A DNA stretch of 63,990 nucleotides, the filler included, from Malassezia furfur (lineage: Eukaryota), in assembly GCA_052055015.1 (NCBI GenBank). It is 4 parts of 4 records of this genome, joined end to end, with 100 filler letters (N's around TTAATTAATTAA, not from the genome) between each part and the next. Parts side by side here need not be neighbours in the genome. Positions count along the whole stretch, not along the records: positions 50,644 to 63,990 come from JBQJIT010000320.1; 3 more parts are not named here. One strand, 5' to 3'. A program made the position numbers and the translations under genes. The notes below the pieces were generated by a model. That model saw only the letters and a list, made by a program, of their open reading frames with translations, ran no database searches and was not told the origin of the DNA. The number at the start of each line of letters is the position of its first letter. Positions within the stretch are counted from its first letter, which is position 1. Shown piece by piece: positions 59,435-63,990 of the stretch.

Positions 59435-60526
59435 ATGCGTCTGGTTTCGAGTGCTGCACTCCGGTATGCCGCTCCTCTTGCGCCCAAATATGTAGCAGGA
59501 CGTCATCTGAGCACTTCGGCCGTGCGCCCGCGCAATCTGCTCACACTCGCCGACATGACCATCCCGGAGCTGGATGCTCTGCTCCAGCGCGCCGCCGATT
59601 TCAAAAAGACCTACAAGACACATATCCAAAAGAGCGCGGCTTTCGAGCACACTCTTCAAGATAAAACCATTGCACTCATTTTCAGCAAAAGGAGCACGCG
59701 CACGCGCGTTGCGAGCGAGTCTAGCACTGCGCTGCTCGGCGGTCACCCCATGTTCCTTGCGCCTTCTGATATTCAGCTGGGTGTGAACGAGAGTCTTCTT
59801 GACTCTGCGTGTGTGATCAGCTCTATGGTGGACGGTATCATGGCGCGTGTGGGTGGCCATGATGAAATCGAGACGCTCGCGAAATACTCGCAGGTGCCTG
59901 TCATCAATGCGCTCTCGAGCCGCTTCCACCCAACGCAGATCCTTGCCGACCTGCTGACCATGTTGGAGACCATGTCAGAGCCAGGAGCGCCATTGAAGCC
60001 GCTTTCGGCCCTTTCTGGGCTCAAGGTGTCTTGGGTCGGTGACTCTAACAACATTCTCAACGATATGCTCGTCACCTATCCTCGTCTGGGTATGGATCTC
60101 AGTGTCGCTGCCCCGAAGGGCGATGCCTATGCGCCTGACCAAGTCGTTTTTGACCTGATGAACAAAGGCCTGGCGGCGGAGAAGTCGGACAAGCCTCAAG
60201 GCGCCGTGGAATGGATCCACGACCCGTACCAGGCTGTTCGCGATGCTGACTACATCGTCACTGATACTTGGATCTCGATGGGTGACGAGGCATCCAAGGA
60301 ACAGCGTCTTATTGACTTCAACGGATTCCAGGTCACCGAGTCTCTGGCCAAGCAGGGTGGCGCCAAACCCGACTGGAAATTCCTGCACTGTCTTCCGCGG
60401 AAGTCGCAAGAAGTGGACGATGACGTTTTCTACGGCGCGCGTTCTTTGGTCTTCCCCGAGGCAGAAAACCGCAAATGGACGATTATGGCGTGCTTTGATT
60501 GGCTTTTCGGCCTCAGGCCACTTTAG
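59435..60526 (+). CDS. ARG3: Ornithine carbamoyltransferase, mitochondrial
   Basis: FSKRSTRTR, HPTQILAD, DTWISMG, FLHCLPR, FPEAENR. Confidence 0.98.
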   Translation: MRLVSSAALRYAAPLAPKYVAGRHLSTSAVRPRNLLTLADMTIPELDALLQRAADFKKTYKTHIQKSAAFEHTLQDKTIALIFSKRSTRTRVASESSTALLGGHPMFLAPSDIQLGVNESLLDSACVISSMVDGIMARVGGHDEIETLAKYSQVPVINALSSRFHPTQILADLLTMLETMSEPGAPLKPLSALSGLKVSWVGDSNNILNDMLVTYPRLGMDLSVAAPKGDAYAPDQVVFDLMNKGLAAEKSDKPQGAVEWIHDPYQAVRDADYIVTDTWISMGDEASKEQRLIDFNGFQVTESLAKQGGAKPDWKFLHCLPRKSQEVDDDVFYGARSLVFPEAENRKWTIMACFDWLFGLRPL

Positions 60527-60630
60527 TCACGCACGGACATTCATTGCCTACCACCGGGTCAAATTAGCAATTTTAGTACTTAGGTGACAGAACGATTGAC
60601 ACCCTCGTCTTTGCCACACGCACAGTAGCA

Positions 60631-61138
60631 ATGGTGAAGTTTTACGATTTGAAGGCGGCGCTGCCGAAGGGCCAGACCTATGATTTCAGCCAGCTGCACA
60701 ACAAAGTTGTGCTGATTGTGAACACGGCTAGCAAGTAAGTTTGAAACTACTAATCGCAGGTGTGGTTTCACCCCGCAATTCGAGGGTCTGGAGAAGCTGT
60801 ACAAGGATTACAAGGACCAGGGCTTCACGATTCTTGGCTTCCCTTGCAACCAGTTTGCTCACCAGGACCCCGAGAACGATGACGGAATCTCCAACTTCTG
60901 CATGGTGAACTATGGCGTGAGCTTCCCGATTATGGCCAAGTCGGATGTGAACGGTGCGAATGCGAACGAGGTATTCAAGTTCCTGAAGCACGAGAAGCCG
61001 GGCATGCTGGGCCTCGAGGCAATCAAGTGGAACTTCACCAAGTTCTTGGTGGACAAGGAGGGCAACGTCGTCTCGCGCTACTCGCCGACGACGAAGCCCG
61101 AGTCGATCGCAGCCGACATTGAAAAGCTACTGAAGTAA
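60631..61138 (+). CDS. Cys-type glutathione peroxidase (Hyr1/Gpx3-like), 1 intron
   Basis: VNTASK|CGFTPQ, LGFPCNQF, KWNFTKFLV. Confidence 0.95.
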
Positions 61139-61147
61139 TTAAGTACA

Positions 61148-61455
61148 TCAAGACTTCTTGTCCCATTGTCGAGATAGGTTTTGAAGTAAAGACTCGATTG
61201 GGGATACAGAGTTGGAGGGCGTTGTGTTCAGGCTCTGTAGCCGTGGTTTGCCTGCGTGAGTGGTTCACGTACCTCCTTCTTCCTGGATCTTGGAAGCGAT
61301 ATATTCACGTTTCCGTGTCCGGTTGTACGACTTGATCAGAAATACACTCGAGAACATAGAGATCGTCATGAACGTCCACCTTATGTTAGGCAAGAAGAAA
61401 CATACAAGGCATACATTCGCCCTGGCGACCATTTGGTAGTCTTGGCCTGCTGCAT
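61148..61455 (-). CDS. 86-aa single-TM small protein (possibly DUF4748-like); introns 61380-61405 and 61252-61272
   Basis: Two canonical micro-introns give an intact frame, MQQAKTTKWSPGRMYALWTFMTISMFSSVFLIKSYNRTRKRE...WDKKS*. Confidence 0.65.
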
Positions 61456-61523
61456 TTCGCGTGGAGGCAGACGCAAAACTACGTCTCCGCGTACGGTGCC
61501 ATTTTTTTGCGCACGGGGCAAAT

Positions 61524-62478
61524 ATGGAGTCCCAAGGTTACGAGGAGCTAGTGCTTCTCCAAGCAAGTCTAACAGACGCCGAATTCCAATGGCGTGGTAC
61601 TGCGGATGAGATAGATGCATGGAAGTCAAAACTGGCTGCCTTTGAGCGTGGAGAATGCCTCACTCCGGACACCATGCATTTCTCGCTGCAGGTAAGCGAG
61701 ACCTTGGGAATCTGGATGAACGTTTCTTTGGAGACTGGGAGTCATGAAGACGCTTTTCCCGGGATTACCATGGTCAGCTCAAGTGATGTCGTGCCGCTTG
61801 ACAAACTCAACGAGCTCGTCGACCAGCGGCGCTCTGAGTTGAGCAGCGAGAGTACGTGTATATAATGACCCAGATCTCCCCAACCCGGTCTTCGACATAT
61901 ACACAGCTCTTCGGGAGTATGTGTTTCCATTTGAAGAGGGATACCAGTCACATTCATCTGAAACATTAATCTCTGAGAAGAAACCGCCGAAACATCTTAT
62001 TATGAAACGAGTCATTTTCTGGTCTCATCATCTTGTTGCGCCATCGAAGCGGAAACAATTTGCGGCGTGGTGCCCAGAACTCCAAGTATGGGGCCTTTTG
62101 AAGTTGGGATACCCAGGCTTTCTTCTTTTCGAAGGTGAGGCAGAGGATATCGATGATATGGTCCGCCGCGTAAAGGTACGCTGCTCTCTTGACACAGAAC
62201 ATGCAATGGCATGCCATCTCTATGCGAGTCGAAGTCACCTGGTCTTTTGAGAGCCAAAATAAACCTGAAGATATTCACACACAGGCGCTTCGTTCATGTG
62301 CACTGGCTGCAGGGCGCTCGGTGGTCGAGGGGCCCAAGCTTCGCACAGATTGCCAAGAAGTGCAAGACATGGGCCAGTTTGTTGCTACGTACGTTGCATC
62401 GGCTTATACAGACTGCGCCGGCTTTCATTACCTGAGGAGGAGATTGTCGATGCTTGCCATTTACGCAAGACGCAGTAG
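61524..62478 (+). CDS. RWD/DUF1115 domain protein, 3 introns
   Basis: RVIFWSHHLVAPSKRK..WGLLKLGYPGFLLFEGE..VRRVK|NMQWHA. Confidence 0.8.
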
Positions 62479-63045
62479 CAAAAAATTGGGCGCGTATGCA
62501 CCTGCACGGACCCTGCGTGCGCGCGAGGCGGGCCAAGACCCTTGTATAGCGAAGCAAAAACTTCATTGGGCTATACCGCACGACGCATGACCGGCATGTG
62601 CCCGAGGGCACAAAACAAGCCCCCATATGGCCTTTGCTCTTCACTTTCATTGAATAAGCTCCGGACGGTACCAAGGAAGGAAGAGCACAGGAAACAGAAT
62701 ACCATTTACACCCGGAGCTGCTCTCGAAAGAGACTTCACGCAAGAGTCTTCGGCACAAATTGTCCCTCAACTTGCGGACAGAAACACACAGTGAGAATGC
62801 AAGTCATACTTGCCTGTTTGACGACAACGCCGTTTCTGCTTGAATTGTCATGTTAGGATTACCAAGTGACTACATCGCTGGGATCCGAGTCGCTAGCGCA
62901 GCGCTAGATATACCAGCGCATCAATAGATCAATCTACCATCTCAGGTGACGAATATGCCACCGAGAACGAGTAGGACGTGCGACTGCGTCTCCAGGAGAC
63001 CAACGTGCAGGGTGTCCAAAGGCCAATGTGGGGGCTTGTCGTGAA
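62475..63045 (-). ncRNA. TER: Candidate telomerase RNA (ends approximate)
   Basis: In order 5'->3': enclosing helix 63017-39/62615-36, template UAAUCCUAA 62853-61, pseudoknot 62635-62719, P5/P6/P6.1-like junction 62514-62587, Sm site AAUUUUUUG 62479-87. Confidence 0.75.
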
Positions 63046-63065
63046 ACTACGATTCCGCTTAGTCA

Positions 63066-63856
63066 TCAGCACAACGCCTCGAGTGCTTGGTGCGTGCGCG
63101 CTTGCGACTCGCGCTGGGTGAGTGAGCCACGTACAATCAAGCGCGAGATGTTCTTAAACTGCGGATGATCGGCGCTTCCTGGCATTAGATGGAGGCATAC
63201 CTAGCAGCTGAAATAGAATGGATTCCGAGGTTGCAATGTCGGCGCCTGCCTCGCGCATGGCCTGCATGAGCGGACGGCGTACCTGCACTGCAATGTTCAC
63301 CTCCTTCCCATTGCACGAGCTAATTCCGTCACGGACAACGTGGATGCGCGCTCCCTTCTGGGAAAGGTCCTGTACGGTCTGTAAGACGCAGAAGTGGGCT
63401 TCAATCCCGCAAAGAATAAACTCGACGTCTTGGTAGGAATGACCCTTCCCCGTTGCGTTCCTCAGCATATCGAGCAATCGGCTTCCATGTGCCATACTAA
63501 ACTCACGTTTCGGCTCGATGGCATGCTGCGAAACTGACTTGATCTCGGAGGCCAATTGGGGTACTGTGGATCCCAGACCTGGGTTAACGAGCGGCGTACC
63601 TTGCGGGTACTGTTCGGTAGCAAGCACTGGCATTCCTAGGTACCCTGCCGCTTTGGTGAGTTTGACAGTTGTTGCGACCACATCGTCAAACTTGTGGATC
63701 GCATGACTTGGTCAGTGGGATTGCATACGCGAACTAGGTGAGCAGTGTCACCTACGCGTTCCTGTATATCGCTGCATCAGCGGCTCAAACCTACCATACC
63801 AGCAGCACAGCCGGCTTCGAGAACGGCAGCGCACGGTGCACTGCGGAGGCTGTCAT
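63066..63856 (-). CDS. Isochorismatase-domain protein (ISOC-like), seven 21-23 nt introns
   Basis: VCDIQERF, TEQYPQGLGSTV, K.EFSM, GIEAHFCVLQT, TSESILFQL. Confidence 0.9.
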
Positions 63857-63919
63857 GGTTTGGGGAAGTTGCACGTGGTACGTGACTACCGATTAATTAC
63901 GTCTACGAAACGGTCACGT

Positions 63920-63990
63920 TTACTCGTAGATCCACTCGTCCGCCGAGCGCTTGTAGTCGATCGTAGCGCTCTGCTCGCCGAACCACAGGG
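63920..63990 (-). CDS. 3' end of an unidentified gene at the window edge
   Basis: Open frame LWFGEQSATIDYKRSADEWIYE*. Confidence 0.4.
   Translation of the reverse strand, partial: LWFGEQSATIDYKRSADEWIYE

Follow-up and report, generated by a model that had tools for sequence, protein, structure and literature searches.

A putative compact telomerase RNA gene between the isochorismatase-family and DUF1115 genes of Malassezia furfur

Background

Telomerase RNAs (TERs) evolve so rapidly that, as a rule, a separate search is needed for each group of fungi. The present study concerns a putative TER gene of Malassezia furfur, located close to the end of a 63,990-nt stretch of DNA (assembly GCA_052055015.1; hereafter the window), in the part derived from record JBQJIT010000320.1, between a gene for an isochorismatase-family (cysteine hydrolase) protein and a convergent DUF1115/RWD-type gene. 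In the TERs of vertebrates and ascomycetes (human TR, Neurospora TER, S. pombe TER1, S. cerevisiae TLC1) the core with the template and the pseudoknot is closed by a helix and there is a three-way junction with the P6.1 hairpin; the yeast TERs have an Sm site near the 3' end. These vertebrate and ascomycete features are also cited in the study of the closest described system, that of the genus Malassezia itself (PMC12506658).

The gene is already known, since it was described in 2025 at the same locus across the genus by Sanpedro-Luna and Sanchez-Alonso (G3; PMC12506658), who reported a putative compact TER of ~500 nt in 19 Malassezia species. According to the text of that paper the gene is intergenic, with DUF1115 as the 3' flank and NDK1 (nucleoside diphosphate kinase) as the 5' flank, and a cysteine hydrolase gene is interposed in at least five species. 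The published parts are the template, a stem resembling a TBE (template boundary element), a pseudoknot with covariation in P3 and a U-rich loop, a CR4/5 domain with P6.1 and the motif AAUUUUU, the last reported as invariant in all species examined. In all 18 strains the template substitutions are said to agree with the telomere repeat, CACTAA being the template used for M. globosa, and RNA sequencing (RNA-seq) of M. globosa gave a 1,756-nt NDK1-TER transcript. The paper reports no 3' splice-site signal in Malassezia, and M. furfur is not named in its main text. A search on Malassezia telomerase RNA found no later experimental validation; a 2026 paper only cites PMC12506658.

The telomere repeats of the genus had been described before that work. 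Coelho et al. (2023; PMC10410736) distinguished four telomere motifs in Malassezia, largely clade-specific, gave the motif of M. yamatoensis as 'GGATTA' and called for the identification of the telomerase RNA. With the use of TelFinder, TTAGGA was reported for M. furfur, and the repeat of M. restricta and M. globosa was given as TTAGTG (PMC10100673). The other close system is UmTER of Ustilago maydis (Logeswaran et al., PNAS 2022; PMC9564094), a species of the same subphylum, whose RNA likewise has a template/pseudoknot domain and a CR4/5 domain with P6.1 and arises by processing of the 3' untranslated region (UTR) of a protein-coding mRNA. It differs from the RNA considered here in its length (1,291 nt versus ~560 nt) and in its host gene, which is Emi1, whereas the gene upstream in the window is of the isochorismatase family.

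Results

Between about 63039 and 62479, the minus strand is very probably the TER gene of this yeast of the M. furfur complex, as put forward in the original prediction. We read it so because of the synteny of the locus, the order of the domains, the match between the template and the TTAGGA repeat, and the conservation and covariation found in two other lineages, where compensatory changes preserve the helices and UAACACUAA stands in place of the template. The gap between the stop codons of the isochorismatase and DUF1115 genes measures 587 nt and is wholly taken up by the putative TER. The element is regarded as the ortholog of the published putative Malassezia TER, with which it shares the DUF1115/NDK1/cysteine hydrolase locus, the compact size, the order of the parts and the pattern of template substitution (PMC12506658, main text). 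With ~561 nt it is indeed much shorter than the fungal TERs of more than 1 kb, as had been pointed out from the sequence and as is also the main message of the 2025 paper. It resembles the vertebrate RNAs in size, not the typical fungal ones of >1 kb, and shows neither sequence similarity to vertebrate and ascomycete TERs nor a match to Rfam.

Metagenome contigs were scanned with an alignment of DUF1115 proteins, which gave six related loci, L001 to L006. L001-L004 represent one lineage (93.5-97.8 % identity over the element); the second consists of L005 and L006, which do not differ from each other and have ~68 % identity to the first. In all six loci the strand opposite DUF1115 carries AAUUUUU downstream of DUF1115, and UAACACUAA lies ~325 nt upstream of AAUUUUU. 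Upstream on the TER strand, NDK is the next gene in both loci examined (L003 and L006). The elements of the two lineages are ~506 and 494 nt long, their folding z scores are -2.67 and -3.50, and the minimum free energy (MFE) structures of both include the enclosing helix and the P5/P6/P6.1 junction. An intact isochorismatase gene is missing from both lineages, and the TER element with the same helices is kept.

A possible relic of the isochorismatase gene is found between NDK and the TER in L006 (5783-6043, minus strand) and equally in L005; it reads ...TLKLVKAASCLKMPMLATKH... and then runs into stop codons. The tblastn matches are weak (E 0.013-0.015, 27-33 % identity over 78-85 residues). 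This weak evidence suggests NDK1-isochorismatase-TER-DUF1115 as the ancestral gene order, with the hydrolase lost later.

All ten sequence strings listed in the original prediction were found by a script where it had placed them, and its preference for the minus strand was borne out by folding. The 571 nt of the minus strand fold with -221.8 kcal/mol against a mean of -187.3 for shuffled sequences (z = -5.34; 0/100 shuffles as good), and this MFE structure includes the enclosing helix and the three-way junction. The plus strand reaches -194.0 kcal/mol (z = -3.44), which is 28 kcal/mol weaker.

The template UAAUCCUAA fits the TTAGGA repeat reported for M. furfur, a report made at the species level (PMC10100673). 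At the homologous position all six related loci carry UAACACUAA, which is of the TTAGTG type. Each of the two templates is one substitution away from the canonical UAACCCUAA, in the way described in the G3 paper (PMC12506658). The homology of the two templates was read by eye from their position relative to the conserved flanks, since MAFFT misaligns the template region. The 9-mer is not rare by itself: one match to any of its permutations occurs in the window and ~1.1 are expected from base composition. The weight of the template thus derives from its position inside a conserved scaffold and not from the 9-mer alone. Downstream of the template the hairpin GCAAGU-AUG-ACUUGC is conserved as GCAAGY...RCUUGY with one compensatory pair (C-G to U-A); it is possibly the published P2.1.

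To test the helix that encloses the core, the 30 nt preceding a conserved GGAC were paired with the 24 nt that follow P3, and the best duplex was taken in each lineage. In the window it has 21 bp and an energy of -34.5 kcal/mol, matched by 0/1000 shuffles and by 0/209 other 30-nt windows. The helix of L001 has 20 bp (8/1000 shuffles, 0/203 other windows), that of L003 also 20 bp (4/1000 and 4/202) and that of L005 17 bp (0/1000 and 0/203). The sequences of these helices are unrelated between the lineages, and yet in every case the helix directly adjoins the end of P3 and the conserved GGAC, and it is present in the MFE structures of all three lineages. In the window 11 bp and 9 bp of Watson-Crick pairs surround a 3x2 internal loop. 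The original prediction of an enclosing helix of ~21 bp stands as to place and length, but the last two pairs (62636, 62635) share two bases with the last two pairs of pseudoknot stem 2, so that both helices cannot form fully.

Inside the enclosed core, 119-135 nt upstream of the template, there is a conserved block GGAC...CCUGGAG...GCAC. Its core CCUGGAG(N)GCAC is invariant in the three lineages (L003:5336-5355; L005:5324-5342) and has no obvious pairing partner. The block is probably the published element CE1, because CE1 is placed ~112 nt upstream of the template (PMC12506658). In the text of that paper CE1 was first taken as the 5' boundary of the RNA (483 nt), the boundary was then moved to +33, and the enclosing helix was called poorly supported and poorly conserved. 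The published 5' boundary thus lies at or after CE1, whereas in the window and in both other lineages the 5' strand of the helix is found just upstream of the CE1-like block. If the block is CE1, the RNA would be 20-45 nt longer at its 5' end than published, the comparison being one with the text of the paper. An enclosing helix whose 5' strand would lie upstream of the published 5' boundary looks like a new refinement.

In stem 2 (P3) of the pseudoknot the 11 pairs are paired in 55/55 cells of alignment A4; two of the 11 are compensatory (G-C to A-U and C-G to U-A) and three more are changed on one side. When the partner strand was slid by 1-3 columns as a control, pairing fell to 59-67 %. 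Stem 1, of 8 bp, encloses the U-rich tract and the 5' strand of stem 2, whose 3' strand is AAGUGAAGAGCA, and the U-rich tract is conserved in the relatives. The alignment with relatives, named as a check in the original prediction, thus showed P3, and likewise P6 of the junction, conserved with compensatory changes, together with a different template, UAACACUAA, in all six loci. An alignment of the relatives only (A7) puts the 3' strands of P3 out of register.

The three-way junction of P5, P6 and P6.1 was likewise found where it had been predicted. P6 has compensatory changes in 4/8 pairs. P6.1 is kept in the relatives: GGG/CCC is invariant, the fourth pair is C-G or U-G and the loop has 4 nt, and this hairpin with three G-C pairs differs from those of the vertebrate and ascomycete TERs. 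P5 is present in every lineage; it was matched by 14 of 1000 shuffles for the window and by 23, 24 and 4 for the relatives. A covariance model was built solely from the CR4/5-Sm region of the relatives and both strands of the whole window were scanned with it; the best match was 62577-62527 on the minus strand. The Sm-like site AAUUUUUUG completes the list of predicted parts that were recovered, with AAUUUUU in 6/6 relatives.

The CR4/5 region of the window is ~25-45 nt longer than in the other two lineages. P5 is extended and an additional small hairpin precedes the Sm-like site, and the distance from P6.1 to this site is 42 nt in the window (62488-62530) versus 16 and 23 nt in the other lineages.

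In all three lineages the TER and the DUF1115 coding sequence meet or overlap at their 3' ends, and therefore the two transcripts must overlap antisense. In the window the DUF1115 stop codon directly adjoins the last base of the Sm-like site (62476-62487). In L005 (4885-4897) it is 3 nt from this site, and in L003 (4895-4908) the DUF1115 open frame crosses it (...GGGKNS*).

Discussion

From the DNA sequence we infer that the putative TER is transcribed with ends close to those predicted, binds telomerase reverse transcriptase (TERT) and Sm proteins, and is active. In such an RNA the long-range helix of 20-21 bp would close a core that holds the template UAAUCCUAA and the H-type pseudoknot, with P3 beside the U-rich tract, and this tract may take part in the usual triple helix. 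The binding sites of TERT would be the template/pseudoknot core and the CR4/5 junction, the element that binds it in other TERs, and TERT would repeatedly copy UAAUCCUAA, adding TTAGGA repeats to the chromosome ends. The Sm-like site is expected to define and stabilise the 3' end.

Several points weigh against the assignment as TER. A TTAGGA array is absent from the window, as is a TTAGGG array. An Rfam search of 60000-63990 with E up to 10 returned four junk matches and no telomerase family, and the match of the covariance model scores only 17.1 bits (E 0.1). The covariation is based on three lineages only, with four of the six loci 93.5-97.8 % identical to each other and the other two identical. 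Stem 1 of the pseudoknot is present in every lineage, yet it does not go beyond shuffled sequences, its duplex energy being reached by 70 of 1000 shuffles for the window and by 90, 322 and 102 for the relatives; of the H-type pseudoknot originally predicted, both stems are in place and P3 is conserved with compensatory changes, but the energy of stem 1 is within the range of shuffles. A template boundary element could not be fixed, since none of the hairpins upstream of the template keeps its place or shape across the three lineages. Among the upstream hairpins that had been noticed, GCGCUGG/CUAGCGC is present in the window but is not visibly conserved in the relatives. PMC12506658 is likewise without clear covariation at the template boundary element. 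The published gene itself is called 'putative', and its RNA-seq evidence comes from M. globosa only (PMC12506658).

Three other explanations of the region were weighed. The element could be a structured 3' UTR of the isochorismatase mRNA, or a terminator zone of the two convergent genes, with no role in telomerase and a coincidental 9-mer. Such an arrangement would suit a region that begins, on the same strand, 26 nt past the isochorismatase stop codon and ends at the stop codon of DUF1115, and chance alone would yield about one such 9-mer in the window. We nevertheless consider it very unlikely: the element and its helices are kept in two lineages that have no intact isochorismatase gene, the 9-mer found there fits the TTAGTG repeat reported for M. 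restricta and M. globosa (PMC10100673), and the compensatory pseudoknot as well as the P6.1-like hairpin are left unexplained. The Sm-like AAUUUUUUG, the strong folding and the lack of an Rfam telomerase match would equally suit another Sm-class or structured non-coding RNA unrelated to telomerase. No Rfam family of small nuclear or small nucleolar RNA was matched above E 1 either, and none of note was returned for 60000-63990. The template tracks the telomere repeat across lineages and the domains follow the order known from TERs, which makes an RNA of that kind, if anything, still less credible.

A 158-codon frame (62294-62770, minus strand) is open and gave weak tblastn matches to the related loci, with E values of 0.015-0.085 obtained in a tiny database, as a real protein-coding gene might. 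These matches fall in DNA whose conservation has other reasons, the pattern of conservation preserves helices, no Pfam family is recognised, and the frame crosses the conserved last exons of DUF1115 in antisense orientation. The coding reading was rejected on these grounds and is, in our judgement, almost certainly wrong.

The TER may be matured from a coding transcript, either the isochorismatase mRNA or an NDK1 read-through, as in Ustilago maydis, and we would give this close to an even chance. It is plausible because the spacers of 26 nt and 63 nt leave little room for a separate promoter, and because both the NDK1-TER transcript of M. globosa and the mRNA-derived UmTER provide precedents (PMC12506658, PMC9564094). 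A single transcription unit could comprise NDK1, the isochorismatase gene and the TER. In mRNA-derived TERs of the U. maydis type the coding transcript is capped and polyadenylated, and the mature RNA has a 5' monophosphate. A start of the RNA 26 nt after the isochorismatase stop codon looks like a new refinement, and it suggests maturation from that mRNA. In a more specific form, which we offer tentatively and would rate somewhat below an even chance, the TER of the M. furfur lineage would have no promoter of its own and would be cut from the isochorismatase mRNA or from an NDK1-isochorismatase read-through, with a 5' end upstream of CE1 so that the helix of 17-21 bp can form. As part of this same tentative proposal, the isochorismatase relic of the TTAGTG lineage would have been retained as the spacer between NDK1 and the TER, consistent with a role as precursor leader. 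If this is true, mRNA-derived biogenesis of TER would be a general trait of Ustilaginomycotina with differing host genes, Emi1 being the one in Ustilago. Because the TER fills the 587-nt gap between the stop codons, a precursor derived from an mRNA can be tested for directly.

A fungal TER that is compact by nature (~0.5 kb) can serve as a useful minimal model of telomerase, a point published in 2025. What is added here is modest, namely the observation on the filled gap and the independent support from three lineages for the pseudoknot, for CR4/5 and, chiefly, for an enclosing helix that the published 5' boundary seems to leave out. For the rest, the result mainly confirms that the reasoning from sequence alone was sound.

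Features of the locus

The coordinates of the putative TER, its predicted parts and the neighbouring genes are collected in Table 1.

Table 1. Features of the putative TER locus (positions in the window)
Feature	Position	Strand	Remarks
Putative TER	62479..63039	-	~561 nt; begins with the 5' strand of the enclosing helix, closes with the Sm-like site; ends predicted
Enclosing helix, 5' strand (ACAAGCCCCCACAUUGGCCUUUG)	63017..63039	-	30-nt/24-nt duplex test
Enclosing helix, 3' strand	62615..62636	-	pairs with 63039-63017
Conserved block CCUGGAG...GCACG	62977..62996	-	CCTGGAG and GCAC columns invariant (alignment A2)
Hairpin GCGCUGG-UAUAU-CUAGCGC, upstream of template	62901..62919	-	GCGCUGG 62919-62913 with CUAGCGC 62907-62901
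Template UAAUCCUAA	62853..62861	-	1.5 repeats, specifying TTAGGA
Hairpin GCAAGU-AUG-ACUUGC, downstream of template	62799..62813	-	6 pairs, conserved as GCAAGY...RCUUGY
Pseudoknot stem 1	62719-62712 with 62664-62657	-	8 bp; encloses the U-rich tract and the 5' strand of stem 2
U-rich tract	62699-62688	-	conserved in relatives
Pseudoknot stem 2 (P3)	62687-62677 with 62646-62635	-	8+3 bp, bulged U; 3' strand AAGUGAAGAGCA
CR4/5-like three-way junction	62514..62587	-	P5, P6 and P6.1
P5	62587-62577 with 62525-62514	-	motif check
P6 hairpin	62575-62545	-	motif check
P6.1 GGGUCUUGGCCC	62541-62530	-	motif check
Sm-like site AAUUUUUUG	62479..62487	-	AAUUUUU 62487-62481, in 6/6 relatives
Isochorismatase-family (cysteine hydrolase) gene	63066..63856	-	Pfam PF00857
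NDK1 gene, 3' end, cut by the window end	63920..63990	-	stop codon 63922-63920
Convergent DUF1115/RWD-type gene	61524..62478	+	stop codon TAG 62476-62478

The isochorismatase gene has a 22-nt intron (63200-63179) and ends with the stop codon TGA at 63068-63066, which is separated by 26 nt from the enclosing helix of the TER on the same strand. Its last exon (63173-63069) was recovered by tblastn with the homologs P0022 (M. japonica), P0023 and P0024. Upstream, also on the same strand, 63 nt (63857-63919) separate the stop codon of NDK1 from the ATG of the isochorismatase gene. The NDK1 fragment corresponds to the last 22 codons, ending ...LWFGEQSATIDYKRSADEWIYE*, and its DNA is 75.7-80 % identical to the 3' ends of NDK in L001 and L003-L006; for the truncated L002 no match is among those listed.

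The last exon of DUF1115 has the same end (...EEEIVDACHLRKTQ*) as the annotated M. furfur protein P0001. The DUF1115 exon is 96 % identical to a hypothetical protein of M. furfur CBS14141, and the next named matches are to M. yamatoensis and M. psittaci, both at 70 %; on this basis the window is assigned to the M. furfur complex. The GC content in the window is 52-68 %.

The introns of both flanking genes are very short (22-23 nt) with GTAYG...YAG ends: 63179-63200 in the isochorismatase gene, and 62177-62198 and ~62394-62416 in DUF1115. They were deduced from frame changes and from alignments with homologs. Several database proteins of relatives seem to read through the last DUF1115 intron (...FVA.YV...).

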